Source of the DNA: Candidatus Thiopontia autotrophica
GTDB taxonomy: Bacteria; Pseudomonadota; Gammaproteobacteria; GCF-002020875
NCBI GenBank assembly: GCA_014384675.1
Contig: JACNFK010000024.1
Span: forward strand, 17,018-81,017
Direction: 5' to 3'
Length of the DNA: 64,000 bases
Program-made: the position numbers and the translations under genes
The notes under the pieces: generated by a model
Database searches by the model: none
What the model saw: only the letters and a program-made list of their open reading frames with translations
What the model was told of the DNA's origin: nothing
Shown here: in pieces, positions 7,233 through 39,791 of the stretch
Layout: each line of letters opens with the position of its first letter
Position numbering within the stretch: position 1 is the stretch's first letter

Positions 7233-7240
7233 TGAGAGAG

Positions 7241-7276
7241 GCCCCTTTAACCTGACTGGTGAAAGGGGCTTTTTAC
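7241..7276 (+). terminator. Rho-independent terminator between nirS copy 1 and copy 2
   Basis: gcccctttaacc...ggtgaaaggggc hairpin followed by TTTTT. Confidence 0.6.
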
Positions 7277-8944: not shown

Positions 8945-8954
8945 GTAGAGTAGT

Positions 8955-8990
8955 GGCCGGCACCTGCATATCAGGTGCCGGTTTTTTTAT
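8955..8990 (+). terminator. Rho-independent terminator after nirS copy 2
   Basis: ccggcacctg / caggtgccgg stem followed by TTTTTTT. Confidence 0.6.
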
Positions 8991-10708
8991 ATAATTTATT
9001 TGTACTGCCTGAGGAGCCTTTAATGCCGATTCCTGAAAGACCAAGTTTCAAAGAGAGAATAAAGGTGCTGTTTTCGCGTCGTTTGATCCTCAATACGACA
9101 CTTGGAGGTGGTCTGGTGTTTGCCCTGTTTGGAATTATCTTTTGGGGTGGATTCAATACGGCAATGGAGGTAACAAATACCCTGGAGTTCTGTATCTCAT
9201 GTCATGAGATGGAGGACAATGTATACAAGGAGTACCAAAAGACTATCCACTATGCGAATCGTACTGGAGTACGGGCAACCTGTTCGGATTGTCATGTGCC
9301 TGATCCATGGATACATAAGGTAGCCAGAAAGATTGAGGCCAGTAACGAGGTGTTACACAAGATGTTGGGGACTATTGATACCCCTGAAAAGTTTGATGCA
9401 AAACGTCTGCAGTTGGCAAAAAATGTATGGCGTTCGATGAAGAGTACTGACTCCAGAGAGTGTCGGAACTGTCACAATTTTGAGGCGATGAATGGAGACA
9501 TGCAGAAGCCTCGTGCGATGAATCAACATACCAATGCGCTCAGGTCAGGACAGACCTGTATCGACTGCCATAAGGGTATTGCGCACAAAGGGGTTCATAA
9601 GCTGTTGAGTGATGAAGAGAAGGAGGCGATGGAGGCCCCTGATGAGTCACTGGCGAAACCTGAGGCAAAACTGTTCCAGCTGGCTGATCTGGATCCGGTA
9701 GCTGCGGCAGCAGCCAAGGCTGCAGCAGAGAAGGCAGCAGCAGAGGCAGCAGCAGAGGCAGCAGCCTCGGCCCAGGCAGGTAATTGGGAGACTATTGTGG
9801 GACGAGAGATTCACCTCATCTATCCTGGCCAGACATCCATAGAGTGGGTGCTGAATGGAACAGATCACGGTGGAGCAAATGCCTTTAAAAAGGGTGGAGA
9901 TCGATGCGTTACCTGTCATGACAAAGAGGCCAAGATTATGGGCGACCGTATAGTTGGTGGCACGCATGAGAAGGCGATGGAGCCAACTCCGATTGCTGGC
10001 AAGCGGGGTGGAGTTCCTGTCATGGTGAAGGCCGCTCATGATGGCGATAATCTATACATGCAGTTTACCTGGCATGATGTTGACCACCATACAGCGGGGC
10101 ATAAGTCGGTTGTTGAGGCTGAGCGGATGGATCCCGAGAACCCTGTCAAGCTGGCGATAATGTTTGCGACCGATCAAGTAGAGTTTGCAGACCGTTCAGG
10201 ATGTTGGGGAACTTGTCACCATGATGCCAATGGCATGCCCCATCAGCCAGAGGGTACAGATGTAACCAAGTACACCAAGGAGTCACGCACCAAGATTGAG
10301 GTCAAGGGGCGTCGTGGCAAGAAGCGTGGTGGCTGGGACAAGTTGAGAAAGCCTGAAGAGATTAAGGCTGCACTTGATCAGAAAAAGATCATGGATCTTG
10401 TGCGCTACAAGGCTGGCAGCAACCAGGCAGAAGATGGAATGATCCTGGCCAGCCGTGATATGAGTGGTAACAGTGATGACCTTGAGTTTGAGGGCAAGAG
10501 AGATGACCAGGGAAACTGGGTGGTAGAGATGAAGCGTAAGCTGAATTCCGGTGATGCAGATGATCTGTCACTGGCGCTGGACCAAGTCTATAATTTTGGT
10601 TTTGCTATCCATGATGACTACACCAATGGACGCTTCCACCATGTCTCATTTGGTTACAAGCTTGGGTTTGATGACCCAAAAGCGGAGATCAATGCTGTAA
10701 AATGGTGA
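8975..10708 (+). CDS. nirT: NirT/NapC-family membrane tetraheme quinol dehydrogenase fused to a ~330 aa C-terminal domain with extra haem motifs (likely start 9023, MPIPERP)
   Basis: TM helix then CISCH, CSDCH, CRNCH, CIDCH. An Ala-rich linker (AAAAAKAAAEKAAAEAAAEAAA) follows. The C-terminal domain carries CVTCH and CWGTCH (CX3CH). Confidence 0.8.
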   Translation: MPVFLYNLFVLPEEPLMPIPERPSFKERIKVLFSRRLILNTTLGGGLVFALFGIIFWGGFNTAMEVTNTLEFCISCHEMEDNVYKEYQKTIHYANRTGVRATCSDCHVPDPWIHKVARKIEASNEVLHKMLGTIDTPEKFDAKRLQLAKNVWRSMKSTDSRECRNCHNFEAMNGDMQKPRAMNQHTNALRSGQTCIDCHKGIAHKGVHKLLSDEEKEAMEAPDESLAKPEAKLFQLADLDPVAAAAAKAAAEKAAAEAAAEAAASAQAGNWETIVGREIHLIYPGQTSIEWVLNGTDHGGANAFKKGGDRCVTCHDKEAKIMGDRIVGGTHEKAMEPTPIAGKRGGVPVMVKAAHDGDNLYMQFTWHDVDHHTAGHKSVVEAERMDPENPVKLAIMFATDQVEFADRSGCWGTCHHDANGMPHQPEGTDVTKYTKESRTKIEVKGRRGKKRGGWDKLRKPEEIKAALDQKKIMDLVRYKAGSNQAEDGMILASRDMSGNSDDLEFEGKRDDQGNWVVEMKRKLNSGDADDLSLALDQVYNFGFAIHDDYTNGRFHHVSFGYKLGFDDPKAEINAVKW

Positions 10709-13172: not shown

Positions 13173-13463
13173 CTATCGGGGGCGACAGGTTGATCTGACG
13201 TTGAAAACTTCTTTACTGTTGTCGGCAGCTTTTTCAGGCATGGCTATGGTTATCAAAAAATCACCATCTGCTGTTGTCTCCGTCTTGGTAGTAAACCCAA
13301 GCTCATTAAGATGGCCGTAGAGTGGGTGTGGCTCAACAGAGATATGGAGCTGGAATGAGTCACCTGGCTGCAGTGTCATTGCCATTGATGTAGCCTGCTT
13401 GAAAGGTTCGGGACACTTTAGTCCGCGCACATCAATAACGGCTATAGGTTGATTGCTTCTCAT
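13173..13463 (-). CDS. TusA-family sulfurtransferase (SirA/YedF/YeeD-like)
   Basis: About 80 aa with the DVRGLKCPEP motif (CPxP). Confidence 0.7.
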   Translation of the reverse strand: MRSNQPIAVIDVRGLKCPEPFKQATSMAMTLQPGDSFQLHISVEPHPLYGHLNELGFTTKTETTADGDFLITIAMPEKAADNSKEVFNVRSTCRPR

Positions 13464-13565: not shown

Positions 13566-15023
13566 CTAAAAAAGTTTAATAGGATGGGGGTTTGGGGGAT
13601 TTGACAAAATCTCTCTGATCCGGGCAGCCATATCATTGGCTGATATGCCATGAGCCAGTTTTGTTATGAATTCACCATTGGGAGCCATCAGAAAGACCCC
13701 TGAGGAGTGGTCCATAATGTATTGCTCAGGATCTCTCGATTCGTCCACAACCTTCTCATACTTCACATTATATATCCGGGCGACTCGGTCAGTCATGGCC
13801 TGAGTGCCGGTTAGTCCTGTCAGGGCAGGGTGAAAATAGTTAACATAGGTGCTTAGTACATCAGGGGTGTCTCTGGCAGGATCAACCGTAATAAAGTATG
13901 GCTGAATCTGCTCTGCATCATCCCCTATCCTGTTTAGTGCTGAAGAGATGGTGAGTAGTGAGGTTGGGCAGACATCGGGGCAGAAGGTGTATCCAAAGTA
14001 GACCAGGTGAAATTTCCCCAACATATCCTGATCAGTAAAGAGTTTGCCGTGATGATCACGTAGCATGAATTTGCCGCCAATATAGCTGGACGGTGTAGTG
14101 TCTTGGGCGCTGTTTTTAGCCACCTCTTTTGCAGACTCCTCTACAATTGAGTCATCCACATACTTGAGGCACTGTTTGATGGTGACTGTATTATGCTCCA
14201 TCAACTTGAAGTAGTGGTCTTCTCCAGCCTCTATCCTTGATCCAAAACTGTCCAGTAGACCAATATTTAGAGTGGTTCCATCGGTAAGCAGAGATAGTGC
14301 ATCTGGATCAATCTGTTGTTCAGTCAACAGACAGCTGTAGTCACCGCTCTTGAGCCGGGCTCTGTTTTGCAGAAATGAGAGCCCTCTGACTGGTGTCATT
14401 GGGGACTCTGCAACTACCCCTCGAATTTTTAGTGCATATGCCTGTTCAAAGTACTGCAAGGTATCATAGTAGGCCATTCCAATGCCGCTCTTCAATCCAC
14501 GGTATCCATACTCCAGACGACGATCCAGTTCAGCCAGTCTTCTCAATAGATTGCGACGGTTGTTTTCATATAGTGACTTACGTTCTGGATCAAGCTTTGT
14601 CAGCGCCCTGGCAAGTTCATCGGTAATGATGAGAATATTGCGGCTATCAAGCCAGATGAATGGATCACGCCTCTCCTTGTTCCAGCGTGATGTAAGGACC
14701 TTGATCTCCTCATTGTCGAGCAGGGTAAAGAGGGTGGTGTTTGGGCCAAGCAGCTCTAGCTGATTAACCATAAACTGCTCCAGCTCGGGCCCTATCCATA
14801 CAACCATATCTGCATCTCTGAGAGCATGTTGTTTGGATTTTGAGAGAGTTGCCGTGTATGGCGACTGCTGGTTGTCTACAAGTAGCTCGGGTGGGCGTGT
14901 ATCTGCCAGTAGACCAGAGAGAATTGAGTGGATTGGTTTTATGGTAGTGACAACCTTGAGCGGCTCACCACTCCAGGTAGCTGAAGAGAAGATCAGTAGT
15001 GCAAAGATGGAGAGCAGTCTCAA
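13566..15023 (-). CDS. Fusion protein: ZnuA/TroA-like periplasmic metal-binding SBP domain plus a C-terminal SCO1/SenC copper-chaperone domain
   Basis: Signal peptide and ~300 aa of cluster-9 SBP fold (DPFIWLD where ZnuA has DPHxWLD). The C-terminal ~170 aa carry CPDVCP (CxxxC) and a conserved His (MDHSSGVFL) as in Sco proteins. Confidence 0.7.
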   Translation of the reverse strand: MRLLSIFALLIFSSATWSGEPLKVVTTIKPIHSILSGLLADTRPPELLVDNQQSPYTATLSKSKQHALRDADMVVWIGPELEQFMVNQLELLGPNTTLFTLLDNEEIKVLTSRWNKERRDPFIWLDSRNILIITDELARALTKLDPERKSLYENNRRNLLRRLAELDRRLEYGYRGLKSGIGMAYYDTLQYFEQAYALKIRGVVAESPMTPVRGLSFLQNRARLKSGDYSCLLTEQQIDPDALSLLTDGTTLNIGLLDSFGSRIEAGEDHYFKLMEHNTVTIKQCLKYVDDSIVEESAKEVAKNSAQDTTPSSYIGGKFMLRDHHGKLFTDQDMLGKFHLVYFGYTFCPDVCPTSLLTISSALNRIGDDAEQIQPYFITVDPARDTPDVLSTYVNYFHPALTGLTGTQAMTDRVARIYNVKYEKVVDESRDPEQYIMDHSSGVFLMAPNGEFITKLAHGISANDMAARIREILSNPPNPHPIKLF

Positions 15024-24961: not shown

Positions 24962-25789
24962 CTAAAGTTGATCACCACGGCGGAACAGCATATATCCGAC
25001 AGAGGCAGCGACTGTACCTAGTACAAGAGGGTATGCCATAGCCCATACCAGATACCAGAACTCGCCAAAATGGTCGAGAATGAGATAGGCTGAGGGGCCG
25101 AGCAGAACAAGCTGAGGATCAAACAGCAGCATCGATGCGGTACGAAAAACCTGTAGTGGGTTGCTCAGTGCGATGGCAACAATAGTATCCGAGGGGATCT
25201 GTTGCTGAATCATTATGCCAAGCAGAATAAGATCCAGAAACAGTAGCAGGAAGAGCCAGATCATGAAGGCGCTACCCTGAGCCACATCTGGTGACCTGGC
25301 AATGGTGGAGATTAGCATCCCAATACCAAGGAAGCACCACGATAGAGAGAAGAGCATGGCTGTGTAGAAGAGGAAGATGGACCATGGAATCTCCATATCC
25401 TGAATAACTCCCCATGCAATTGCCCCTGCCATGGCAAGGAAAACAGGAAGGAAGACTACGGTAAAGCGACCAAACATCTTTCCCCAGAACCATGAGGAGA
25501 GAGATATGGGTAGTGAGAGCAGGTACTCAAAGATTCCTGCATCACGATCACCGGCGACAGAGCGTACTGTGGTTATCAGAATAAATATCGGGAGAATAGC
25601 CATTGATAGCTGAATGTATGTAATCAGGAGGCGGGAGAGTCCGACAAACCCCATTATTCTGGATTCAGTCAATCCAAAGGCAAATAGCAGGGCAATAATT
25701 CCCCCAAAGACAATTGAATATATAAGGAACCACTTGCTACGCAGTGACTCGGAGATATCTGCCTTTGCTGTCATCAAGGTGTGCTTCAT
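24962..25789 (-). CDS. nosY: ABC-2 type permease NosY
   Basis: Six TM helices, ~275 aa, overlaps the nosL stop by 4 bp. Context with nosD and nosF. Confidence 0.7.
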   Translation of the reverse strand: MKHTLMTAKADISESLRSKWFLIYSIVFGGIIALLFAFGLTESRIMGFVGLSRLLITYIQLSMAILPIFILITTVRSVAGDRDAGIFEYLLSLPISLSSWFWGKMFGRFTVVFLPVFLAMAGAIAWGVIQDMEIPWSIFLFYTAMLFSLSWCFLGIGMLISTIARSPDVAQGSAFMIWLFLLLFLDLILLGIMIQQQIPSDTIVAIALSNPLQVFRTASMLLFDPQLVLLGPSAYLILDHFGEFWYLVWAMAYPLVLGTVAASVGYMLFRRGDQL

Positions 25790-26415
25790 GGTTTGCTACC
25801 ATCCTGTGGCTGTTTGGGGCGATTGGCCTCTTCGGCACGGTGGGCAAGACGAGCCTTTAGTGAGGCATAGTAGCTCTCCTCCTGACTGAAGACAGAACTT
25901 CTCATCTCCAGGAAGCCGACTGAATCCTGAGTGGCTTTGGGTTGCGCACTAAAGCCATAATTCATCGGGGTATGGGTAACTTTTACATATTGTGCCTCTC
26001 TGGCGTTTAGCCACCCTCCATCTTGATAGTTGTTTACCCATATCTCGGTTTTTGGGTCATCTCTCCATGGCTGCTCTTCGAGCCAGAGTAGAGCACAGCC
26101 TATATCATCAAAAGTATATGGCTTATGGTGTTTGCCACCACGAATCTGGGCAGAGTGGTTGCGATCACTAAGTGCCATCATGCAACGATCACAATTGTCG
26201 CGATCCCAGGTGACATCAACCGGGCCTGTTGCGGGATCACCGCTACAACCAGCAAGAGAGAGCAATAGGGCCAGAGATGCCATCTTCAGTGAGTTTATGG
26301 TTGCCCATCTCACTGTCTGCTCTCCTCGATATTGACTGTTGCCAGCAAGGCGGCATAGCGTGAAAGTACTCCCAGAAAACGGAGGCGATCTGGTCCTGGA
26401 ATAGTTCCAGTCCAC
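25786..26415 (-). CDS. nosL: Copper-binding lipoprotein NosL (likely start MASLALLLSLAGCSG near 26285)
   Basis: Lipobox LAGC. CDRCMM..DRNHSAQI resembles the NosL CxxCxM copper motif. Confidence 0.65.
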   Translation of the reverse strand: MDWNYSRTRSPPFSGSTFTLCRLAGNSQYRGEQTVRWATINSLKMASLALLLSLAGCSGDPATGPVDVTWDRDNCDRCMMALSDRNHSAQIRGGKHHKPYTFDDIGCALLWLEEQPWRDDPKTEIWVNNYQDGGWLNAREAQYVKVTHTPMNYGFSAQPKATQDSVGFLEMRSSVFSQEESYYASLKARLAHRAEEANRPKQPQDGSKP

Positions 26416-27299
26416 TCTGTTTCAGAGTCCTGGTTGCTGAATCCCCATGAGCTGATGGCGGCAGAAAATGCTGGTTCGATACGAGTGGTCTTGATGGTGC
26501 AGTTGAGCAGGCTGGATAGCTCAACACTATCATCAACTCGATCATCCAGAATTACCTTGCCTCGATCCAGCTCAATCACCCGGTTTACCAGTGATGCAAC
26601 CTCATCAAGTCGATGGCTGGAGATCAGCATTGCGGTCTCTTTTCTCTTCTTCTCAAGCATGGAGAAGAGGATATGTCTGGCCTCAGGATCAAGGTTGGCA
26701 GCCGGCTCATCCATTATGAGTAGATTGGTAGGGCGCCCAAGCGCTATGGCAATCAGCAGTTTCTGTTTCTGCCCGCCAGAGAGTTTTACAAATGGCCTTT
26801 TTTTGATGGTATCCAGTCCGAGCCCCAACTGTTCAGCTACTGATGCCATCTCTTCTGTGGAGCACCCACAGACACTGGCAGAGAAATCGAGAAGTTGTTG
26901 AACCGGCATCTTTAGTGGTGGAGGGAGTTGGGGTACAAATCCTATCCGTGAGAGAACCTCTTTTCTCTCCTTGCGAGGGCTCTTGCCATCAAGGGTGATC
27001 TCTCCATCGCAGCTGTATTCACCGAGCAGACAGCGGATCAGAGTTGTCTTGCCGGCACCATTGGAGCCGATAAGGGCAACCCTGTCACCAGTCTTGATCT
27101 CCAGATCAAGCTCCTGCAGAACTGTGGTGCGTCTGAAGCTCTTTGATACCCCCTGCAAGATGATCATTTTTTCTTGCTCAGCCCTTTGAAGTGGTAGCTT
27201 AGAGAGTCTGTTGGACAGACATCTACACACATGCCGCACCTGGTGCAGTCGGGACCTATGCCCACATTCACATCTGGTGCACGTCCCTTGATTGTCCAC
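26310..27299 (-). CDS. nosF: ABC ATPase NosF (likely start MIILQGV near 27167)
   Basis: Walker A GSNGAGKTT, ABC signature LSGGQKQK, Walker B LLIMDEP. Confidence 0.8.
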   Translation of the reverse strand: MDNQGTCTRCECGHRSRLHQVRHVCRCLSNRLSKLPLQRAEQEKMIILQGVSKSFRRTTVLQELDLEIKTGDRVALIGSNGAGKTTLIRCLLGEYSCDGEITLDGKSPRKERKEVLSRIGFVPQLPPPLKMPVQQLLDFSASVCGCSTEEMASVAEQLGLGLDTIKKRPFVKLSGGQKQKLLIAIALGRPTNLLIMDEPAANLDPEARHILFSMLEKKRKETAMLISSHRLDEVASLVNRVIELDRGKVILDDRVDDSVELSSLLNCTIKTTRIEPAFSAAISSWGFSNQDSETEWTGTIPGPDRLRFLGVLSRYAALLATVNIEESRQ

Positions 27300-28156
27300 T
27301 CCAGCACATGTGGAACCAGACAGACCTTGCGGCAGTCTCCTTCATGGTGGCAGGCGTCAACATTGTAGTTGATCTTCAATGGGGAGAAGATACCAACAAA
27401 GCCATAGGTAAGGCCGATAGGGCAGGCATAGCGACACCAGGCTCTGCGCGAGTAGAGGATCTCTACAGTAAGCAGAAACAGTACCCAGAGCAGCGCAACT
27501 GTAGGGCCATAAATCAGTGCTCGACTCAGAATTCCCGTGGGGGAGATCGCCTCAAAAATCGTGTAACCGGTACCAAGTGCCAGGGCAATAAAGATGATAT
27601 ATAGGTAGAGGCGTGCCTTACGGTTAAAGAGATGGTTTTTGATTATCTTCTTTTCAACCAGTTTAATATGGATCATCTCGGCAAATTCCGAGAGCAGATG
27701 GTATGGGCAGACCCAGGAGCAGAAGGTGCGTCCGCCCAATAATAGCCAGAGGATAAGGATAGTGACAGTTCCAATAAGCAGGTTGATTACAACTGTCTTG
27801 AAGGCGAGCATCACCTGCAGAGCTGAGTTTAGGTCAGCCATATGGAATCCAAGAAAACGGGATGCAGTTAGTGCGCCCTCCAATACCTGGATATCCAGCG
27901 TATAGGAGACGACAAAAAGGAGGTTAATCAGGATTAGAGTGGTCCAGCGTCTTTTGCGCCACTTTTTGTTGTGAGTTTCACGATATATCTGGTGCTCTTC
28001 ACGTGCCTTTACCTTATCTATATCGCCATTTTTTCTCTTGCGCTCATGGAGCTCTTGCGCCGCGGCAGAAATTTTTTCAGGAGGAGTTTTGGCGGGGCTT
28101 TTCCCCATCATTATGTTGACGCAATACTTGCCGATCTTCATGCGACATCCTCCCAC
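27164..28156 (-). CDS. nosH: NosH, a NapH-like membrane ferredoxin
   Basis: CSWVCP and CPIGL motifs, two C-terminal 4Fe-4S motifs, paralogous to the ORF at 1894. Inside the nos cluster. Confidence 0.75.
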   Translation of the reverse strand: MGGCRMKIGKYCVNIMMGKSPAKTPPEKISAAAQELHERKRKNGDIDKVKAREEHQIYRETHNKKWRKRRWTTLILINLLFVVSYTLDIQVLEGALTASRFLGFHMADLNSALQVMLAFKTVVINLLIGTVTILILWLLLGGRTFCSWVCPYHLLSEFAEMIHIKLVEKKIIKNHLFNRKARLYLYIIFIALALGTGYTIFEAISPTGILSRALIYGPTVALLWVLFLLTVEILYSRRAWCRYACPIGLTYGFVGIFSPLKINYNVDACHHEGDCRKVCLVPHVLEWTIKGRAPDVNVGIGPDCTRCGMCVDVCPTDSLSYHFKGLSKKK

Positions 28157-28962
28157 ACTTTTCTCTCATCTATGACAATTGATGGAGCAGCAGTTGGGCA
28201 GACCATCTCGCAGACTCCGCATCCTACACATCCCTCCAGCACGGTAGGGCGGTAACGCAGGCCACCATCTGGCTTCTTCTCTACGGAAAGCATGATTGCC
28301 CGGTGTGGAGGACACTGATTCTTGTCTCCGGACGGTGGTTTACCTGCATCACACTGGTTGGCCCGTATCTCTATTGGACAGAGGCGAACGCAAAGATCAC
28401 AGAGTGGCAGATCAAAATGTTGTTCATTAAGTTGTTGTGGCTCCCAGCGGTCAATCTCGTCAAAGCGAAGCTTGCCGTTGTACTCGGGCCCACGGGTAAT
28501 CCCCCTGAACCCCTCTTTTTTCATCGCAAGACATTCATCTGGCAGTTCAAGGCGCGCGATCCCCATCCTGGTTTCATGGGAGTAGTTGATCTCATGGGTC
28601 AGTGCACCGGTTGGGCATGCCAGAACACACTGCAAGCCATCACAGGAGAAGTCACAAGCCTGGTCACGGGCATCAATATAGGCTGCCCCCTGACCCTGGC
28701 CATCAAAAATATCTGCCAACTCAATGGCCTCTACCGGACATACCTGAACACACTGCCCGCACTTGATGCAGGAGGCCAGGTACTCCTTCTCATCGAGGGC
28801 GCCGGGGGGGCGTAATCTAGGGGCAGTATTGCTTACTGTGGGTAGCAGGGTAAGTAATGAGAATCCTGTAACCCCAACAACCATGGCTGAGGTTCTCATG
28901 AACTCTCGACGCTCCCTCTCTTTTCTTGATAGACGCTTAGGTCTCTTCTCTGATTCGCTCAT
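28138..28962 (-). CDS. nosG: NosG, a NapG-like periplasmic poly-ferredoxin with a Tat signal
   Basis: RREFMR twin-arginine motif and four 4Fe-4S cysteine motifs. Overlaps the nosD stop. Confidence 0.75.
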   Translation of the reverse strand: MSESEKRPKRLSRKERERREFMRTSAMVVGVTGFSLLTLLPTVSNTAPRLRPPGALDEKEYLASCIKCGQCVQVCPVEAIELADIFDGQGQGAAYIDARDQACDFSCDGLQCVLACPTGALTHEINYSHETRMGIARLELPDECLAMKKEGFRGITRGPEYNGKLRFDEIDRWEPQQLNEQHFDLPLCDLCVRLCPIEIRANQCDAGKPPSGDKNQCPPHRAIMLSVEKKPDGGLRYRPTVLEGCVGCGVCEMVCPTAAPSIVIDERKVWEDVA

Positions 28963-30380
28963 TGCAGGCTATTCTCAAGTAGTCTTAGTGATGATGACCA
29001 ATCCTTTTTGGCCTGTTTTTCATCTTCAATTGTAGCTTCCTCTATTAAATCGTTCAGCTCTGCTGTTGTCTCGGCAACACGATTTTCACTGTTTAGTATA
29101 CGGCTATCCAGGGATGCCAATAGTGGTTTTTCATCCCTCAACAGTAGTGTTGGTTCAGAGAATGGGGCAAGCTGCTCAAGAAAATCAAGTGATGCAAGAA
29201 GTGGTGTTCCCATAAAGAAGCGGGCATCAGGGCGGTCCATCCAGAGTCGATCAGCATAGGCGTAGAGCTCGTAGGGCGTATCTCCAGTGCCGTCACTATT
29301 CTGATCAAATCCCTCATAGTCATCCCAGTGATTTCCTTCCCACACATTTTTGGTGGCACCGCCGTTTCCATCGACAGCCACCTGCGTGATGTTGTCCTTG
29401 AAGCTATTATTGCGCGCAACATTTCCCCACCACGGGGTATGGAAGAGCATACCGATGCCATTAAAGGCAATCAGGTTGTCCTCCATCAGGTTGATGGTAT
29501 CTGGTTGGTATGGGGATACATCACTATAGATGCCGGTGGCACAGTATAGAATCTTGTTGCCGGTGATTTTAACGTCACTGGTCTCCTTGAGCCCTATCCC
29601 CATCCCTGTTGTCCCCTGAGAGTGGGCTATATAGTTGTTTTTGATTACTGCACTATCACTGTACATCAGGAATATACCTACAGAGTTGTCTGTATACTCA
29701 TTCTCCTCAATCAGATTTCCCTGTGAGTACATAAAGTGGAGAGCATAGCGTCCACCGGATGATCTGTTGCGAGCAATGGTGTTGTCTTTCGAGTACCAGA
29801 CAACCATATCTCGAGAGTTGGTAATAATGTTATCGGTGACCTGGTTATCAAAGCTATACCAGAGTCGGACCGAGTCCCCCTGAAGACCAAGAGCCCGATC
29901 ACTTTTAGAGCTGATTTTGTTGCGACGAATAATGTTGTTCTTTGATTGGCTCAGGTCGATCCCGAACAGACACTCTTCTATGGAGTTGTCCTTCACTACA
30001 TTAAAGTCTCCCTTAACCTGAACCCCGGAATCTACATCATTATGAGAACCGCCAGAATTGATTAGGCGGAGATTCTGTAGAGTTGCTCCATCAGTATCCA
30101 GGTAAATTACACTTCCTTTTCCACCTGCATCAATGGTAACCCCATTCTTTCCATCAATGGTGATAGGGGTCTCAATGGTGACGGGACCAGCATATATTCC
30201 TGCTGGTGGTGTCAACAGACCACCCTTTGGGGTGGCATCTACAAGATCCTGAAAGGAGGGAAGATCTGTAGCCTTAGACTGAGGCATGATCACAGAAAGA
30301 GTTACAGTTAATGCTGTTAACAGTAACCAGCGTGTAGTGAGATGAGGTCGGTTCCAGCTCTCCACCATCACTTGTTTCAC
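28959..30380 (-). CDS. nosD: NosD, a periplasmic right-handed beta-helix protein for CuZ assembly
   Basis: Signal peptide and repeated PbH1-like units (NNxI..N, multiple N/D-rich turns), ~470 aa. Confidence 0.8.
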   Translation of the reverse strand: MKQVMVESWNRPHLTTRWLLLTALTVTLSVIMPQSKATDLPSFQDLVDATPKGGLLTPPAGIYAGPVTIETPITIDGKNGVTIDAGGKGSVIYLDTDGATLQNLRLINSGGSHNDVDSGVQVKGDFNVVKDNSIEECLFGIDLSQSKNNIIRRNKISSKSDRALGLQGDSVRLWYSFDNQVTDNIITNSRDMVVWYSKDNTIARNRSSGGRYALHFMYSQGNLIEENEYTDNSVGIFLMYSDSAVIKNNYIAHSQGTTGMGIGLKETSDVKITGNKILYCATGIYSDVSPYQPDTINLMEDNLIAFNGIGMLFHTPWWGNVARNNSFKDNITQVAVDGNGGATKNVWEGNHWDDYEGFDQNSDGTGDTPYELYAYADRLWMDRPDARFFMGTPLLASLDFLEQLAPFSEPTLLLRDEKPLLASLDSRILNSENRVAETTAELNDLIEEATIEDEKQAKKDWSSSLRLLENSLQ

Positions 30381-30410
30381 GTTTACGGACTTCGACTAAA
30401 TCGATCGGTT

Positions 30411-31622
30411 TTAATTGTGCGATGATTTCAGGCGAATCAGTGCAACTGCAGCCAGAACTACAGAGTTGAGCATGATTAGTCCAAAACCATAATTTGGGTA
30501 TGAGTAGGTGGCAAACTGGGCAACCTTGCCAACCCCAAATACGGTTGGCATAAATGGTTTTACAGTAAATGCACCCATCTCACTCAGATTGTGACCAAAC
30601 CACCAGAGCCATCCGGCGTAATCCATAATAAAGAATATTGGCAGTGCCATGGGAACAAGAATCAGTATCCAGGTAAAGATTTTCTCCATCTTCCAGAGGC
30701 CAATTATAATCAGTGCCATGGCAGCCAGCAGTCCGCCAAAGACAATATTGGTAATGGTCATAATTAGCTCGGTACGCTCAATATCAGTCATTCCTACCTT
30801 GTCTGCCATAATCCCGCAACGAGACATAAATTCACTCTGTTGCTGTTCGGTAGTCATGGATGAGTCACTCTGAATCATCTTGTACATTTCATGGAAGGTG
30901 GACATGACGGCAGGGGTCGCACCAGCGTTGACCAGGAGATCATTCAGATCTTCAAAAGGACGCTCCTGAGTTGCATATAGGTCAACATAGGTCATCTTTT
31001 CTGCATAACTGTCACAATCCACCCCAATGGTTGGGAAGTAGCGTGCCAGGGCCTCTTCATAACTCGCCTCGATAGCCTGGGTTCCGCTCCAGCTCTCTAT
31101 CTCTTCAGGATTTAGTTGCATGGTGCTCATCAAGTCGTCACGATAGGGAGAAGACTGCATATTCAATCCACCTTCGGTGTAAAGGGTGGTGTATGCCCAG
31201 CCAGCTATTACAATGGAACCAGCCCCCATCAGCATGATACGTTGTCGATTATTGGGTATGGCAAAGGCGATAATCATCAGCCCAAGCAAAACAAATACAA
31301 ATGGAGATACCGCACGCTCTACCGGGGCACCGGCAGCAATTGGATACATTCCCACATAGTGGTTGATGGCGTCCATCTCATGTTTGCAGTTGAGAGCCTC
31401 CTCCTCAAATTTCTCTTCGGTCTCGACTTTCTCGCAACCATTAAAGACACCATTGACGTGGAAGTGGATGCGAATCCCCTGAGGGAATGCAGCTTCTGGA
31501 TACTGCGGCGCCTTTAGTGATACCCACCAAACCGGGCTATAGAAGATGGAGATCAGCAGACCGATGGCAACCATGGAGAGGGTGCCGATAATAAAGTGCT
31601 GTTTTGTGCTGGTAGTGCTCAT
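30411..31622 (-). CDS. nosB: NosB-like polytopic membrane protein, a hallmark of clade II nos clusters
   Basis: 403 aa membrane protein between the nos cytochromes and nosD. Called from position and membrane topology. Confidence 0.55.
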   Translation of the reverse strand: MSTTSTKQHFIIGTLSMVAIGLLISIFYSPVWWVSLKAPQYPEAAFPQGIRIHFHVNGVFNGCEKVETEEKFEEEALNCKHEMDAINHYVGMYPIAAGAPVERAVSPFVFVLLGLMIIAFAIPNNRQRIMLMGAGSIVIAGWAYTTLYTEGGLNMQSSPYRDDLMSTMQLNPEEIESWSGTQAIEASYEEALARYFPTIGVDCDSYAEKMTYVDLYATQERPFEDLNDLLVNAGATPAVMSTFHEMYKMIQSDSSMTTEQQQSEFMSRCGIMADKVGMTDIERTELIMTITNIVFGGLLAAMALIIIGLWKMEKIFTWILILVPMALPIFFIMDYAGWLWWFGHNLSEMGAFTVKPFMPTVFGVGKVAQFATYSYPNYGFGLIMLNSVVLAAVALIRLKSSHN

Positions 31623-31747
31623 GTTGTAAAAACCCTTATATCTTTTGTTGTCTGGTTTTATTGCCCTGTCTTGTTCTATACGTCGTTACTCACTCCTCCA
31701 TGAGAAAATCTGGATTCACCCTCCTGTAGGGGAGGGTGAATCAAACA

Positions 31748-32476
31748 TTAGTCGTAGTCGGGGTTGATCCAGCCAACAGCCCCCAGATCCTCTGCAGGTA
31801 CAGGGATACGGGATGTATAGTCTATAACCGCCTTCATATCTGCATCACTGAATTCGGCAATCTGCTTGACCATGTCAGGGTTGGCATTACGGCGCTTGCC
31901 ATCACGAATCCACTCGAACTGACGCAACATATAGGCATAGTGCTGCCCATGGATCTTGGGATAGAACTTCTCCTGGTTGCCCTCACCATTGTCACCATGA
32001 CACTGTGTGCAGTTTTTCTTGTAGAGCTCTTCGCCTCGGGCAAGATCTGTTCCGTCACCCTTGCCATTGTCCGGGTTCATTGGCAGTTTGGCGATGTAGT
32101 CGGTTACATCTGCAATTGCCTGCTCGTCACCAATCGACTCAGGAAGGGCAAAAGGGTACATTGTTGGGTTATCACGATTCAGGGCACGAATATCTGCCAA
32201 CTGTTTGATCAGTACATTTTTGTGCTGTCCTGCCAGTTGGGGGAATGTTCCGTTCTGCATCCCCCACCCCTCCAGAAGGTGACATGCAGAGCAGACCTCG
32301 TATACCTCGATTCCATTCTCACGGTCAGGAGTAAGTGTCATTGCAACACTCTGCTCACCTTCACCGGTATTCCAGTCCTTTACATCGGTAACCTGTCCAC
32401 CGGCTGATACCGAGGCGTTAACTCCTATTCCAATAAATGCGACCCCAGCCACAATTGCCGTAATTTTCTTCATCAA
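31748..32476 (-). CDS. Dihaem cytochrome c (NosC2-like, c4 family)
   Basis: Signal peptide plus CSACH and CTQCHG motifs. Paralog of the ORF at 12482. Confidence 0.75.
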   Translation of the reverse strand: MMKKITAIVAGVAFIGIGVNASVSAGGQVTDVKDWNTGEGEQSVAMTLTPDRENGIEVYEVCSACHLLEGWGMQNGTFPQLAGQHKNVLIKQLADIRALNRDNPTMYPFALPESIGDEQAIADVTDYIAKLPMNPDNGKGDGTDLARGEELYKKNCTQCHGDNGEGNQEKFYPKIHGQHYAYMLRQFEWIRDGKRRNANPDMVKQIAEFSDADMKAVIDYTSRIPVPAEDLGAVGWINPDYD

Positions 32477-32566
32477 TATCTCTCCACTATGTTCTGTTTA
32501 TTCAGGCGTTCTATAGATTATGTGATAGAGCCATTTTTTGCTTTGATCTGTGTCAATGCTCTCTTT

Positions 32567-32887
32567 TTACTTCAGGGTTGATAGCCACTCGGCAATCTCT
32601 GCCATCTCTGTCTCATTAACCAGCCCCATTACACCTTGCATGGCGGCAGCACCGCCGTTATTACGAACTCCGGACTTGATATCCTTCATCTGATTAAGAG
32701 CATACTCTTTGCTCTGGCCAGCCAGTTTTGGGTATGTAGGAAGTACAGGGGTCTGTGCATCCTTTCCATGACATGCCCAGCATGTCTTGCTCTCATAGAG
32801 TGCTGCACCATCTGCCGATGCTGTTGTAGCCATTGTAGATAACATGGCTATTGATGTTGCTACCAGGAGAGTTTTACTAATATTCAT
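32567..32887 (-). CDS. Monohaem cytochrome c (NosC1-like, c551/c552 family)
   Basis: Signal peptide and a single CWACHG motif, 106 aa. Confidence 0.75.
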   Translation of the reverse strand: MNISKTLLVATSIAMLSTMATTASADGAALYESKTCWACHGKDAQTPVLPTYPKLAGQSKEYALNQMKDIKSGVRNNGGAAAMQGVMGLVNETEMAEIAEWLSTLK

Positions 32888-32983
32888 TATCTATTCCTCT
32901 GTTCAATTATTGTCAAACTGCATTAGATCCTATTCAAACTTTATTTCCAAACTATTTCAGAACAGTTTTTCAAGGAATTTTTA

Positions 32984-33018
32984 TTAAAAAAGGGGAGAGC
33001 AATAAATGCTCTCCCCTT
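32984..33018 (-). terminator. Rho-independent terminator directly after nosZ (minus strand)
   Basis: On the minus strand, ggggagagcatttattgctctcccc followed by TTTTTT. Confidence 0.6.
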
Positions 33019-33045
33019 AAGGACTAACAGTGTGTTAGTTGCGCA

Positions 33046-35415
33046 TTATTTAGCTTGCACAACCGCACCGTGTTGTTCCAGGTAGGTTTTGGCGCGCAGA
33101 CCAATGTCCGCAGCCTTCACCTGGTACTGCCACCACTGACCAGCCTGCAGAGTTGCATTCTGGAAGTCGTTGGCAGCTGCAGATTCCTCTGCCTTTTTCT
33201 GCCATGCTGCAGCAAAGCCCAACTGATCAACGGCATCCTCAACCAGTGCAGTTACTGGTGCGAAGTCCTTGAAGTTGGTGCTGGTGATATAACCTACAAC
33301 ACTGTCGATAATGGCTTGCGTATCCAGATTGGTCTGGTACTGCTTGTCATAGTCTGCCTTGTTATAGGTTGTACCATCAACAATCTCACCCTCTACAGCC
33401 TTGTAGCCTTTGGGTTTGACCAGCAGATAGCCTTCCATCTCAAGGTGGAGTGCTGAACAGAACTCAGTACAGTAGTAGGGGAATACGCCCTCTGTGTCTG
33501 CCATGAATGTTGCAGATACAGTCTTTCCTGGTTCCAGTGAGAGGTTTACATTGGTGCCGTTGATTGCGAAACCGTGGGTCTCATCCTCAGCACGCTCCAG
33601 GTTGGTAAGGTGAATAATTACCTTGTCACCAACCTCGGCCTCAATGGTCTCTGGAGTGATATGTGAACGGATCACAGTACCAAATACCTCAACAGTACAG
33701 TTGTCACCATCACAGGTGCGAGATGTCTTCTCACGACCAGCACGGGTCTTGTAAGGAGAGCGCTTGTCGGAGCGGCTATCCCAACCAGACTTGTAGCGGA
33801 TAGCTGGCTTAAGCTTGTCTGCCTTAATCGCAACCGCGTAGTGCGGTTCGCCCAGTGGTATAGGCATATCATAGAGCAGCTCCATCTTGTCGCCACTGAT
33901 ATCGATCAGCTGGTGGTTCTGTGGATGGAGTGGGCCGACAGGATTGAATCGGTCAATCGCCAGCTTGTCCAGTGCTACCAGATACTTGCCGTCTGGAGAT
34001 GCAGAGTCACCCTCCATAGTCATCAGATGGCCAATATTGTAGTGAATGGAGAGCTTGTCCAGAATCTCACCAGTACAGTAGTTCCACTTGGTGACCTGAG
34101 AGTCTACGTAGATAGAGGTGTAGACAGTACAGTCTTTGGAGTCATACTGCGTATGCAGTGGCCCAAGACCAACCTGTACCTGTCTTTCCAAAGCATCTTC
34201 CAGAGAGACAATGGGGATACCATAGTCATCACGAGCCTCATATTTACCGGCACTGTGTGCAGCCATCATCTTCGCGAAGCTGTATACATATGCGTGGCTA
34301 TCCAGCTTGCCGGATACGATCATGAACTTGCCGTCAGGAGAGACGTCAACACCATGAGGACTCTTTGGTTCAGGAACCAGGAATAGAGCATTGTTCTCAA
34401 CCATGGTCTCCATGGAGAGCACATCCATGCCATTCACTGATTTACCCTTGCCGGCCTTGTAGAGCTCTACTGCCTTCTTCCAGTTAACTGCATGGAGGAA
34501 GTCAGTATCCTTCTGCGAACAGCCTGCCTCATAAGGAGGACGCCCCTTCTCGATACCGCCTACGTAGCGCTCGGAACAGAATGAGTTGGTGAAGGACCAG
34601 CCATCACTACCAAACTTGCCGAAGTCGGAGAGGTCCTGACTGTATGGAGGCATCTCAACTGTAAATGATTGAGATGGATCAAGGCGACCTATCTCACGGT
34701 TGAATTTCCAGTAGGTAACACCGCCACGATAGCGGTCATTGAACTGCTCCAGAGGTACATACTCATCCTCAAATGGTGCAGGGTACTGGGCTGCCTCAAT
34801 TACATAGTCAGTATTTGGAGTTACAAATGCACCACCATGCTCATTATTAAAGTGTGGGTTGACTACAATCTGTTTGGTTTCGAAATCATGTAGATCAACT
34901 ACCGCCAGACGAGGGTTGTTCTTGTCATTAATGAATAGATACTGTCCATCATACTCAGCGTTGGTTTCGGAGATCGCTGGATGGTGGGTATCACCAAAGT
35001 TGATATCCTTACCGTTGATTCTTCCTTGAGCCAGGACTGCCTTGGACTCATCATCAAAGCCGTAACCCTGCCACGGCTCTGGGGTGAATACCGCAACGTA
35101 TTTGAGAATACGCATTGAGGGAATTCCGTAGACAATTAACTGACCACTTTGACCACCAGAACTGAAGGCGAGATACTCATCACGACCTCCAGAAGGGGTG
35201 TAGGTTTTTGCTGCCGCCAATAGATCCTTTTGTGTAAGGCCACGGGCCTCCATCACATCGTCCAGCGCGGATGACCACGCTGCACTTCCGGTTCCGAGCG
35301 ACATTCCGATGGCCATTGCCATTGTGAGTGTCTTTTTAAACATAAGTTGTTGACTCCTGATTGTTTTTTTATCGCCTCGATCTCCTGGGAGAGAAATCTG
35401 GGCGCATGATTTCAA
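33046..35415 (-). CDS. nosZ: Nitrous-oxide reductase NosZ, clade-II-like with a Sec signal (likely start MFKKTL near 35343) and a ~120 aa haem-free C-terminal extension
   Basis: Seven-bladed propeller region. CuA site HGF..CTEFCSALHLEMEG. Signal peptide without RR. Accessory genes nosB/G/H/C are present. Confidence 0.9.
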   Translation of the reverse strand: MKSCAQISLPGDRGDKKTIRSQQLMFKKTLTMAMAIGMSLGTGSAAWSSALDDVMEARGLTQKDLLAAAKTYTPSGGRDEYLAFSSGGQSGQLIVYGIPSMRILKYVAVFTPEPWQGYGFDDESKAVLAQGRINGKDINFGDTHHPAISETNAEYDGQYLFINDKNNPRLAVVDLHDFETKQIVVNPHFNNEHGGAFVTPNTDYVIEAAQYPAPFEDEYVPLEQFNDRYRGGVTYWKFNREIGRLDPSQSFTVEMPPYSQDLSDFGKFGSDGWSFTNSFCSERYVGGIEKGRPPYEAGCSQKDTDFLHAVNWKKAVELYKAGKGKSVNGMDVLSMETMVENNALFLVPEPKSPHGVDVSPDGKFMIVSGKLDSHAYVYSFAKMMAAHSAGKYEARDDYGIPIVSLEDALERQVQVGLGPLHTQYDSKDCTVYTSIYVDSQVTKWNYCTGEILDKLSIHYNIGHLMTMEGDSASPDGKYLVALDKLAIDRFNPVGPLHPQNHQLIDISGDKMELLYDMPIPLGEPHYAVAIKADKLKPAIRYKSGWDSRSDKRSPYKTRAGREKTSRTCDGDNCTVEVFGTVIRSHITPETIEAEVGDKVIIHLTNLERAEDETHGFAINGTNVNLSLEPGKTVSATFMADTEGVFPYYCTEFCSALHLEMEGYLLVKPKGYKAVEGEIVDGTTYNKADYDKQYQTNLDTQAIIDSVVGYITSTNFKDFAPVTALVEDAVDQLGFAAAWQKKAEESAAANDFQNATLQAGQWWQYQVKAADIGLRAKTYLEQHGAVVQAK

Positions 35416-35613: not shown

Positions 35614-36006
35614 ATGAAAAAAGTGATTGGAGCAATTTTGTTGGCAGGCAGCTTTGGTGCCTATGCTGATACCCAGTTGAGTTGTGATCTGGACGAGATT
35701 GATAGCTATTCAGGCGAGGTGACTCATAATGCTGATGTCAAGGTCTCGGTACCTGACAACCATTTCCGTGACAAGCGTGTCAGTGAACATGATGAGGATT
35801 ATGTCATTTATGAGGAGTGGGTAATCAACCCGCAGGCCTCGATCTACCGTCTCAGAGGCAAACTGGATGGTGAATTGGTCACTCTGGAGAAAAGCATGAT
35901 TGAGGCAGGTACAGGGATTGTGCGCGGAGAGATTCGCCACAAGGAGCTGGGTAGTCGTCCAAGAAAGAACACTACCTATGAGGGACGTTGTTATCTGGAT
36001 GAGTAG
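35614..36006 (+). CDS. Hypothetical secreted protein
   Basis: Signal peptide ending AYA-DT, 130 aa, no recognisable motifs. Confidence 0.4.
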   Translation: MKKVIGAILLAGSFGAYADTQLSCDLDEIDSYSGEVTHNADVKVSVPDNHFRDKRVSEHDEDYVIYEEWVINPQASIYRLRGKLDGELVTLEKSMIEAGTGIVRGEIRHKELGSRPRKNTTYEGRCYLDE

Positions 36007-37305: not shown

Positions 37306-38094
37306 ATGCTCCGCATTCAATTTTTATGGAGAAGAGATATGTTTAGAACGGTAGCAGCATCAATTTTGGTTCTGGCAATGGCTGGGTGTTCCGACAGTGG
37401 TAATGCTGTAGAAGAGATTGCAGTCTCCCCAGGGTTTGAGATGACGACGCTAAAGGATGGTAGCGGAGCAGGCGCCAAGCCTGGTGATATTGTCTCTGTT
37501 CACTATACAGGAACCCTGACTGACGGCACCAAATTTGACTCCAGTCATGATCGTAACGAGCCTTTCAGCTTTACTCTGGGTGCTGGAAATGTGATCAAAG
37601 GGTGGGATCATGGTGTCAAGGGGATGAAGCGCGGAGAGCAGCGCAAGCTGGTGATTCCGCCAGAGATGGGGTATGGCAGCCGTTCAATGGGGCCAATTCC
37701 TGCGAGTTCTACCCTGCTGTTTGATGTGGAGCTGATAGATATCCTGAGCTATACAGATATCAACAATGAAGAGTTACAGACGTTGTTGAAAGAGGACGAT
37801 ATTGTGCTGGTAGATATCCGCCGACCAGAGGAGTGGAAAAAGACAGGTATTGTCGAGGAGTCAGAAATGATTACAGCCTTTACCAAACGCGGCAGTCTCC
37901 ATCCTGAGTTTAACGAGAAATTCCTGAAACGCTTCAAGGCAGATGATCGAGTCATCATTATCTGCCGTACCGGAAACAGGACAGCTCGTCTGGCTCAGGC
38001 TTTGGTAGGGGAGATGGGTTGGAAGAATGTATATAATGTAAAGAGAGGTATTACTGACTGGATCAAGAAGGGGTATCCAGTAGTAAAACCATAG
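37306..38094 (+). CDS. Lipoprotein fusion of an FKBP-type peptidyl-prolyl isomerase with a rhodanese domain
   Basis: Lipobox [12 protein letters not shown] motifs ([26 protein letters not shown]). The C-terminal rhodanese has active-site CRTGNR. Confidence 0.8.
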
Positions 38095-38135: not shown

Positions 38136-38705
38136 ATGAAGAGAACAATTTCAGCAACACTGGTTGCAGGCATGCTTACTATGCCGTTGGCCGCATCAGC
38201 AGACAGAACCGATCAGTATGTAAATGAGAGTCGTGCTGCCGTTAAGTCACTATTCAAGACTCTGAAGGGTAATCTTGTCGGAGCGATGAAAGCTGGTGGA
38301 CCAATCAAGGCTATTGAGGCCTGTAACCTCAGTGCCCAGCCATTGACTGTGGCGGAGGCAGGGCGCCTCGGTTACGATATTGGCAGAACCAGTCTGCGTC
38401 TGCGTAACCCTGTTAATGAGGCGGATGCGTGGGAGATCAAGGTGCTGCAGCAATTTGAGGCTCGCAAGTCTGCTGGTGAAGACCTCAAGAAGATGGATTA
38501 CTACGAGGTTGTTGATAGTGGTGGTGGCAAGACATTCCGTTACATGAAGGCTATTCCCGCGGGTAAGCCATGCATGGTATGTCATGGCGATATGGTTGCA
38601 CCGAAGGTTCTGGAGAAGATTCGTAGCCACTATCCACTTGATCAGGCAACCGGCTTTAAACCAGGAGACCTGAGAGGGGCGTTTACTATCTCAAGAAAGA
38701 TGTAA
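38136..38705 (+). CDS. Periplasmic monohaem c-type cytochrome (DUF3365/Tll0287-like)
   Basis: Signal peptide and a single CMVCHG near the C-terminus. Confidence 0.55.
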   Translation: MKRTISATLVAGMLTMPLAASADRTDQYVNESRAAVKSLFKTLKGNLVGAMKAGGPIKAIEACNLSAQPLTVAEAGRLGYDIGRTSLRLRNPVNEADAWEIKVLQQFEARKSAGEDLKKMDYYEVVDSGGGKTFRYMKAIPAGKPCMVCHGDMVAPKVLEKIRSHYPLDQATGFKPGDLRGAFTISRKM

Positions 38706-38766: not shown

Positions 38767-38851
<85 letters not shown>

Positions 38852-38924: not shown

Positions 38925-39464
38925 TTACTCTGTTGTAGCGTCACCTGTTGTTGCTGTCTCGGCAGAACTATCAGCCTCCTCACCCTTCGGCCTTCTTGGG
39001 TAGCGATCAGTCAGATCCGCTGCAGGTGGTTGCTGAGGAGCACTCCAGCCCTGTTGCGGACCATACCCATAAGGTTGTTGCTGACCCCATCCTCTGTTGC
39101 CTCCCCAGGGCATGCCGCCCCAGCCTCCATTGTTTCCACCACCCCAGGGCATTCCACCCCAGCCGCCACGGTCACCGCCTCCCCAAGGCATGCCACCACC
39201 ACGGCCACCCCACGGGCTGCCCCCGCCCCAGCCAGGCTGTGATCCCCAGGGGGTCTGCCATCCGCTTGGACCCCACTGCTTCATATCTTGCCCCCAATAC
39301 TCTTTTTTCCATTCGCGAGCCTCAGGCGGGCCATCCCACTTGTCCCATCCGCCCCATTTGTCCATCTTCCAGTCCTCGGGATCGACAAAGGCATTTGCGC
39401 TGGTGGTAAAACTGGCAACTGCTGCAAGCAGAAGTGCGGTTGTGAGTTTGTTGGTTTTTTTCAT
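38925..39464 (-). CDS. Secreted Gly/Trp/Pro-rich low-complexity repeat protein (GGMPWGG repeats); a possible sulfur-globule-type structural protein
   Basis: Signal peptide ending ANA-FV. Repeats GGMPWGGG(N/D)xGGWGGMPWGG. An acidic Thr-rich C-terminus. Confidence 0.55.
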   Translation of the reverse strand: MKKTNKLTTALLLAAVASFTTSANAFVDPEDWKMDKWGGWDKWDGPPEAREWKKEYWGQDMKQWGPSGWQTPWGSQPGWGGGSPWGGRGGGMPWGGGDRGGWGGMPWGGGNNGGWGGMPWGGNRGWGQQQPYGYGPQQGWSAPQQPPAADLTDRYPRRPKGEEADSSAETATTGDATTE

Positions 39465-39533: not shown

Positions 39534-39620
39534 TGGTACCGAGGGGGGGACTTGAACCCCCAAGACATTGCTGCCGGCGGATTTTGAATCCGCTGCGTCT
39601 ACCAATTCCGCCACCTCGGC
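39534..39620 (-). tRNA. tRNA-Leu (anticodon CAA)
   Basis: The reverse complement folds as a type II tRNA. Anticodon loop gcgga-TTCAAAA-tccgc. CCA end present. Confidence 0.85.
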
Positions 39621-39715
39621 ATTGAGGGTGCGGATTATAGGCGCAGTGTGTTGATGATACAACGGGATTATTGACAATGAATGGTTGCACTGTACAATGC
39701 CCATTCGACTTTACA

Positions 39716-39791
39716 GGCGCGTAACTCAGTTGGTTAGAGTGTCACCTTGACATGGTGGAAGTCGGTGGTTCGAATCCACTCGCGCCTACCA
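39716..39791 (+). tRNA. tRNA-Val (anticodon GAC)
   Basis: 76 nt. GGCGCGT acceptor stem, anticodon loop TTGACAT, T-loop GGTTCGAAT, CCA end. Confidence 0.85.

Follow-up and report, generated by a model that had tools for sequence, protein, structure and literature searches.

The roles of rhodaneses in the bacterial periplasm are poorly defined. Sud of Wolinella is a periplasmic polysulfide-sulfur transferase. PspE of Escherichia coli is an active periplasmic single-domain rhodanese (PMC2593051); it is known mainly by its activity in vitro and by an artificial rescue of disulfide formation, and a passage of PMC5403849 that cites Chng et al. 2012 describes PspE, together with DsbC, as partly replacing DsbA/DsbB. 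Furthermore, rhodaneses limit the disulfide stress driven by sulfane sulfur in sulfide oxidation (PMC9163753), a rhodanese of Acinetobacter baumannii with the loop CRSGNR (8w14 in the Protein Data Bank, PDB) is associated with an encapsulin (PMC10925157), and in plants a parvulin-type peptidyl-prolyl isomerase (PPIase) is fused to a rhodanese domain (PMC9797600). Here, we describe a bacterial gene that joins an FKBP prolyl isomerase to a rhodanese. The gene (37306..38094, + strand) lies in a stretch of 64,000 nucleotides from Candidatus Thiopontia autotrophica (GenBank assembly GCA_014384675.1, contig JACNFK010000024.1, positions 17,018 to 81,017), which is called the window and to which the coordinates refer unless another contig is named. 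Comparisons at the level of domains strongly suggest that its product is an exported protein in which the FKBP prolyl isomerase is followed by a sulfurtransferase-type rhodanese, and in the window organism this protein is probably tethered to a membrane through a lipid anchor.

The longest open reading frame (ORF) of the fusion gene encodes 262 amino acids and was found, in the ORF list and in the sequence itself, to be one frame with zero internal stops. Because all the aligned homologs begin at M12 and a GGAG is placed 7 nucleotides upstream of its ATG at 37339, this ATG is the likely true start, and the product of the probable coding sequence from 37339 would have 251 amino acids. The initial annotation had described an FKBP and a rhodanese in one lipoprotein ORF; the two-domain frame was confirmed, as both the Pfam domains lie in the uninterrupted ORF, and the frameshift between the domains that might have undone this description was not present. 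The possibility of a frameshift or mis-assembly artefact was also rejected because the same fused frame is kept in dozens of independent contigs. When the protein was compared with NCBIfam, only sub-threshold matches to FkpA/Mip-like FKBPs and assorted rhodaneses were obtained, which places it outside every curated equivalog.

The FKBP_C prolyl-isomerase domain spans amino acids 57–144 (37474..37737, + strand) and matched Pfam PF00254 with an E-value of 8.4e-37 and 125.8 bits against a cut-off of 21.1. When compared with human FKBP12, 11 of the 14 pocket residues were found to be kept (Y26, F36, D37, R42, F46, V55, I56, W59, Y82, I91 and F99, in FKBP12 numbering), the differences being N in place of E54, the deletion of H87 and P in place of I90. 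These pocket residues are invariant or nearly so in an alignment of 22 homologous sequences, in agreement with the intact substrate pocket that had been claimed earlier. The closest solved FKBP, as identified by Foldseek against the PDB, is the Mip-like FKBP of Burkholderia pseudomallei, with 61% identity and a root-mean-square deviation of ~0.8 Å to the predicted model. No Pfam match to FKBP_N (PF01346) was found in the fusion protein, which has ~15 disordered residues between Cys28 and the FKBP domain, and because it has no FKBP_N domain it does not belong to the Mip/FkpA subfamily.

A short linker of sequence ILSYTDINN (amino acids 145–153; 37738..37764, + strand), delimited in the 22-sequence alignment, connects the FKBP domain to a single rhodanese domain at amino acids 154–254 (37765..38067, + strand; Pfam PF00581, E-value 7.7e-17, 62 bits against a cut-off of 22.2). 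The active-site loop C220-R-T-G-N-R225 (37963..37980, + strand, with the TGC of C220 at 37963-37965) fits the six-residue C-R-x-G-x-[RT] type with the catalytic cysteine in the first position, and C220, R221, T222, G223 and R225 are invariant in the alignment. The single-domain rhodanese with a CRTGNR loop was thus present as annotated. An inactive rhodanese domain, such as a Cys-to-Ser homolog, was considered for the window protein and rejected, since the loop is intact and the cysteine is present in all 22 sequences. The nearest solved relatives of this domain by sequence are 6mxv, 8w14 and Sud of Wolinella (1qxn), all of which are distant (E-values of 1e-9 to 1e-12, with 1.8e-9 for 1qxn).

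The N-terminus of the window protein has the features of an export signal: a hydrophobic core comes after a short n-region of positive charge, and then a lipobox-like M-A-G-C that continues as CSDSGNA when read from the cysteine. The signal peptide M12–G27 and the putative lipobox M25-A26-G27-C28 are encoded at 37339..37389 (+ strand), with the codon of Cys28 at 37387-37389. Against the lipobox pattern [LVI][ASTVI][GAS]C, the window protein deviates by the Met at -3, and the orthologs carry L-A-G-C, L-A-S-C, L-I-S-C or L-V-S-C followed by the conserved SDSGNA. The motif L-[AIV]-[GS]-C-S-[DS]-[SE]-G-[ND]-A is kept in 9 of the 22 aligned homologs, and the other 13 have an ordinary signal peptide and no lipobox cysteine. 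The flexible tether between the putative lipid-anchor cysteine and the FKBP domain (amino acids 29–43; 37390..37434, + strand) is deleted in the non-lipoprotein homologs, and the more distant members of the family have signal peptides or N-terminal membrane anchors. Among 18 representatives scanned, both domains lie behind an N-terminal hydrophobic signal or anchor, with the exception of one N-terminally truncated fragment. These findings suggested that the extracytoplasmic location would be a trait of the whole family and that lipidation would be a trait of a sub-clade, covering part of the close clade only. Of the lipobox reading AGCSD given in the initial annotation, the placing of Ser29 at +2 and Asp30 at +3 was upheld, but the lipobox cysteine extends to only part of the close clade. 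The earlier statement that inner-membrane retention is not predicted, made from the Asp at +3, rests on the +2 rule of E. coli, which may not apply in this organism.

The AlphaFold2 model of the fusion protein, built with the 22-sequence alignment, had a mean predicted local distance difference test (pLDDT) score of 85.6 and a predicted template-modelling (pTM) score of 0.65. The pLDDT was >90 in both domains and over the junction (92-94 in the latter), and residues 1-9 and 27-37, the latter just past the lipobox cysteine and with pLDDT <50, were disordered. The model fits a protein in which a flexible stretch of ~15 residues links a lipid anchor to two globular domains that lie close against each other. 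A Foldseek search of the model against the PDB returned matches to the FKBP half only, with a TM-score normalised to the query (TMq) of <=0.40, and no two-domain relative.

The fusion is not confined to the window. Among the best 120 matches in a collection of 5.8 billion proteins, ~30 clusters at 90% identity carry both PF00254 and PF00581 as precomputed domains and are 48-90% identical to the query. A profile spanning the junction (last FKBP strand, linker and rhodanese) was run against 1.84 billion representatives at 50% identity and matched 10,484 rhodanese-like proteins at E ≤ 1e-3. A match that began at profile position 1, and so spanned the junction, was taken as the mark of a fusion. 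Among the best 150 of these 10,484, it was shown by 16 full-length proteins and 1 fragment, so that the family comprises at least 17 clusters at 50% identity. Pfam detected both domains in each of the 18 sequences scanned (the 17 profile matches and the window protein). Full-length fusions with 38-47% identity occur in Alphaproteobacteria, among them Rhodobacterales HTCC2255 and Hongsoonwoonella zoysiae (Stappiaceae). A scan of genome contigs with the full-length alignment yielded at least 5 full-length fusions among the matches listed, which were mostly ordinary FKBP genes, and 13 further full-length fusions came from metagenome loci. The survey of architectures combining FKBP_C and Rhodanese, which had been proposed as a check on the annotation, therefore found a family. 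The fusion is uncommon among rhodaneses, as was first noted, but it is not singular; it is a real, moderately diverse and conserved family of uncultured marine Gammaproteobacteria and of Alphaproteobacteria. In the public records its members are named only “peptidylprolyl isomerase” or “rhodanese-related sulfurtransferase”, and the metagenome-assembled genomes “Gammaproteobacteria bacterium” or “Thiotrichales bacterium”. A literature search for an FKBP–rhodanese protein found no paper; the architecture is visible in databases and uncharacterised.

Within the close clade, the mean pairwise identities of the two domains are 80% and 77%, and that of the linker is lower than either. This similar conservation is consistent with purifying selection acting on both the domains. 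Some variants of the family were observed in addition. Two alphaproteobacterial fusions (L001 6025..6834 and L003 5935..6693) have an extra C-terminal C-W-L-C after the rhodanese domain, and this dithiol may serve the rhodanese cysteine as a resolving pair or a redox relay. In a homolog of 315 amino acids (P0109 / L089 10001..10948), the C-terminal strand of the FKBP, the linker and the beginning of the rhodanese occur twice, which may reflect either a genuine tandem duplication or an error of assembly. In the metagenomic locus L120 (8790..9450), the FKBP part (8790-9074) and the rhodanese part (9082-9450) are in different frames, which indicates a frameshift or sequencing error of that copy only.

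The architecture of the protein, its export signal, its conserved catalytic residues and the similar conservation of its two domains are observed, and we propose from them that the fusion protein is a tethered periplasmic prolyl isomerase and sulfurtransferase acting as a general factor on envelope client proteins, a proposal to which we give an even chance of being correct. The protein would be exported, and the lipid on Cys28 with the linker of ~15 residues would hold the two modules at the membrane. The FKBP module would interconvert the cis and trans forms of Xaa-Pro bonds in envelope proteins that are unfolded or have just been exported, and Cys220 could bear sulfane sulfur as a persulfide, or else a sulfenate or a mixed disulfide as in PspE of E. 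coli. With clients bound by the FKBP, the rhodanese could add, remove or exchange sulfane sulfur or disulfide equivalents on client cysteines; in relatives that have no catalytic cysteine, the rhodanese domain might be only a client-binding module. Precedents that speak for the proposal are the periplasmic activity of PspE, its partial substitution, with DsbC, for DsbA/DsbB, the restraint of sulfane-sulfur-driven disulfide stress by rhodaneses and the parvulin–rhodanese fusion of plants. Outside the sub-clades, the surroundings of the fusion gene are variable and include housekeeping genes, like those of the stand-alone rhodanese relatives, and such varied surroundings are easier to reconcile with a general factor than with one that serves a single pathway. 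Apart from the fusion gene, the five alphaproteobacterial loci share nothing, no neighbour is shared across all the fusion-bearing loci outside sub-clades, and no homologs of NosZ, the secreted 130-residue protein described below, PurT, the Tll0287-like protein or the Gly/Trp-rich protein were found near the metagenomic fusions, several of whose contigs are short.

In this proposal, both enzyme activities, the lipidation and any coupling of the two activities on shared clients are what we infer. Several points weigh against a general envelope factor. How the two domains are oriented towards each other is predicted with only moderate confidence, as the pTM of 0.65 indicates. The catalytic cysteine has been lost in four distant fusions, with Ser in L004 (5974..6696), Asp in L005 (1844..2611), Gln in P0238 and Asn in P0338, so some lineages can dispense with rhodanese chemistry, and it is not in every member that persulfide chemistry keeps the two domains fused. 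Finally, the close-clade fusion keeps a set of neighbours, namely a secreted protein of 130 amino acids (hyp130), a Gly/Trp-rich protein, a Tll0287-like haem protein and often nosZ, and such kept neighbours could point to a dedicated role.

These neighbours were inspected with tblastn and clustering on contigs carrying fusion homologs 67-80% identical to the window protein, which gave five informative lineages. hyp130 (35614..36006, + strand; no Pfam match) has a signal peptide and two invariant cysteines (C24 and C126), and its clade-restricted family consists of 21 clusters. It lies upstream of the fusion gene on the same strand in all the five lineages, directly adjacent in L082 and L094, with purT inserted in the window, L085 and L092. 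The AlphaFold2 model of hyp130 (pLDDT 44) was unusable for a fold search. On the other side of the fusion gene, a Tll0287-like protein (38136..38705, + strand; Pfam PF11845, E-value 5e-24) has a CMVCH haem-c motif and a second conserved cysteine (AIEAC), and from Tll0287 itself we presume that it may be a candidate His/Cys-ligated haem protein. Its gene follows the fusion gene after a gap of 41 nucleotides with its own AAGGAG and no terminator-like site in between, and it is probably co-transcribed with the fusion gene, as judged from this arrangement; the promoter and terminator scans performed at chance level and support only the lack of an obvious terminator before it. The same order recurs in L094, where the Tll0287-like protein is 66% and the fusion protein 68% identical. 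Next comes a secreted Gly/Trp/Pro-rich protein with GGMPWGG-type repeats (38925..39464, - strand; no Pfam match), flanked by tRNA-Leu(tag) (38767..38851, + strand), tRNA-Leu(caa) (39534..39620, - strand) and tRNA-Val(gac) (39715..39791, + strand). Its homologs or N-terminally similar proteins adjoin the fusion gene in L090 (61% identity), L085, L094 and L100. PPDK and other unrelated genes are also syntenic within the close clade.

One dedicated role that would draw on these neighbours is periplasmic sulfur trafficking in a sulfur oxidiser, in which the rhodanese persulfide would bring sulfane sulfur to sulfur globules or oxidising enzymes, or take it from them, while the FKBP would dock or fold the partners. 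The homology of the rhodanese domain to Sud of Wolinella, the secreted low-complexity Gly/Trp-rich protein beside the gene in the window and in four other contigs, the CxxCH protein with its second conserved cysteine after the gene in the window and L094, and the listing of the close clade as “Thiotrichales bacterium” in NCBI records with its presence in Saanich Inlet metagenomes all favour this role. The initial annotation had likewise seen a fit to a sulfur-oxidiser lifestyle, but no sox, dsr or sqr gene was found among the scanned ORFs of the window, no linked sox, dsr, sqr or fcc was seen in the window or in the related loci examined, and the contexts elsewhere are unrelated. The TusA at 13173, which had been offered as a further sulfur link, is not supported as one; the TusA-like ORF (13173..13463) is 24 kb from the fusion gene, has no signal peptide in its translated N-terminus by inspection, and is not linked to it. 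The possible sulfur-globule protein at 38925 stands as a conserved neighbour in the close clade, but its globule identity is unproven because no Pfam family matched. Moreover, the synteny of the Gly/Trp-rich and Tll0287-like genes is confined to the one clade in which PPDK and other genes are syntenic as well, the alphaproteobacterial fusions are without shared neighbours, and four members are without the cysteine. We therefore regard dedicated sulfur trafficking as unlikely, although it is the best placed of the alternatives.

The loss of the cysteine in those four members, to Ser, Asp, Gln and Asn with the fusion persisting, speaks for a different possibility, in which the rhodanese is mainly a non-catalytic chaperone or substrate-recognition module that replaces the N-terminal dimerisation and chaperone domain of Mip/FkpA and the protein is a plain PPIase-chaperone. 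Inactive rhodanese domains serve as interaction modules in other protein families, and the absence of an FKBP_N domain from the fusion would fit such a replacement. The C-R-[TS]-G-x-R loop, however, is strictly conserved in the clade of the window and in most members, which is hard to explain without catalysis, and we consider this reading somewhat more doubtful than sulfur trafficking.

The gene content of the window raised the possibility of a link to denitrification. The window is a denitrification island with housekeeping genes and not a sulfur-oxidation locus. A complete nos cluster of clade-II type (24962..35415, - strand) contains nosZ, a cytochrome c gene, a gene for a 402-residue protein, nosD, nosG-like and nosH-like genes, nosF, nosL and nosY; the 402-residue protein occupies the nosB position and has no Pfam match, and the nosG-like and nosH-like products are Fe-S proteins. 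The nosZ gene (33046..35415, - strand), encoding nos_propeller and cupredoxin domains, lies upstream of the fusion gene on the opposite strand; the cluster ends 1.9 kb upstream of the fusion gene, and the order from nosZ onwards is hyp130 (+), purT (-) and the fusion gene. Farther upstream are nirS, a NirT/EB_dh cytochrome, a Crp-family regulator, a hemerythrin, a ZnuA–SCO1 fusion and menaquinone genes, and downstream of the fusion region are thrS, infC, pheST and other housekeeping genes. The nirS (cytochrome cd1) region (5487..10708, + strand) includes an ORF of 561 amino acids (7259..8944) and one of 577 amino acids, the product of which has a NapC/NirT tetrahaem cytochrome fused with an ethylbenzene-dehydrogenase-like (EB_dh) domain. 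A protein of 485 amino acids encoded between the nir and nos groups (13566..15023, - strand) combines a ZnuA-type periplasmic metal-binding domain with an SCO1/SenC copper-chaperone domain and may deliver copper to denitrification enzymes.

In this setting, the fusion protein and hyp130 could be accessories of nitrous-oxide reductase, supplying sulfane sulfur for the [4Cu:2S] CuZ site and/or isomerising prolines of the NosZ propeller. In favour of this role, the assembly of CuZ is described as “scarcely understood”, with sulfur supply assigned only indirectly to NosDFY (PMC8179356), and nosZ adjoins hyp130 in the window, in L082-84 (Saanich Inlet contigs) and in L092-93, that is in three of the five informative lineages, each with the fusion gene. 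The NosZ of the window is 85% identical to that of the Saanich Inlet contigs, and the fusion proteins of the same contigs are only 67% identical. L085/86 and L094, however, hold hyp130 and the fusion gene with no nos genes within 8-10 kb, and no nosZ or other nos gene was linked to the fusion in 18 more distant loci (5 alphaproteobacterial and 13 metagenomic, several of the contigs being short). In the window itself the fusion gene and nosZ lie on different strands and are separated by purT, E. coli has yielded functional N2O reductase when given no more than nosRZDFYLX (PMC8179356), and a literature search on nosZ with rhodanese found nothing specific. An accessory role for NosZ is thus improbable. 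Its most specific form, in which a SUP05-like denitrifying lineage would use the lipoprotein and hyp130 as a NosZ maturation module, with Cys220 feeding the sulfide bridges of CuZ and the FKBP holding or isomerising the apo-NosZ propeller, is a shade more improbable; the recurrent place beside nosZ nevertheless makes the protein a candidate for the CuZ sulfur donor, on weak evidence. Least probable of all is that the Tll0287-like haem protein is the target of the fusion protein, which might persulfidate or maintain its cysteine haem ligand as part of a redox or sulfide sensor. The closely spaced downstream gene with its own Shine-Dalgarno sequence and the recurrence in L094 speak for this, and the absence of the haem gene after the fusion in L082, L085, L090, L092 and L100 speaks against it.

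Returning to the general envelope factor, a natural and conserved fusion of a rhodanese with a prolyl isomerase suggests that rhodaneses of this lineage may act on the cysteines of proteins instead of on small molecules. If this is true, the family would lend itself well to work on how proteins are persulfidated, or freed of persulfides, in the envelope of bacteria that live at sulfide/nitrate interfaces.

When set beside the known systems, each half of the protein has its own counterparts. BPSS1823 of B. pseudomallei (PDB 2y78 / 4dz3), of the BpML1/Mip/FkpA type, has an FKBP domain 61% identical to that of the fusion with a conserved pocket and has been solved with bound inhibitors; Mip/FkpA-type FKBPs, however, carry the FKBP_N dimerisation/chaperone domain, where the fusion instead has a signal peptide with a putative lipobox and, at the C-terminal end, a rhodanese. 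PspE and GlpE of E. coli, Sud of Wolinella and 8w14 have, as in the fusion, a single rhodanese fold with one catalytic cysteine in a six-residue loop, and PspE and Sud share the periplasmic location as well. The likeness is only distant, the domain of the fusion is covalently joined to a PPIase, and no psr, psp or encapsulin genes are nearby; for psr, no molybdopterin-oxidoreductase annotation occurs among the listed neighbours of the fusion or the scanned ORFs of the window, and no search aimed at psr was made. Closer in sequence are stand-alone relatives of 130–157 amino acids (e.g. P0121 and P0149), which match the full length of the rhodanese domain with 46–58% identity but have no FKBP domain and lie in housekeeping gene surroundings. 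The same order of parts, a prolyl isomerase followed by a C-terminal rhodanese-like domain, is found in AtPin3 of Arabidopsis and TaPar32 of wheat (PMC9797600). The isomerase of these eukaryotic proteins belongs to the unrelated parvulin (PpiC) family, so that they are analogous and not homologous to the bacterial fusion, and the pairing of a PPIase with a rhodanese therefore arose independently.

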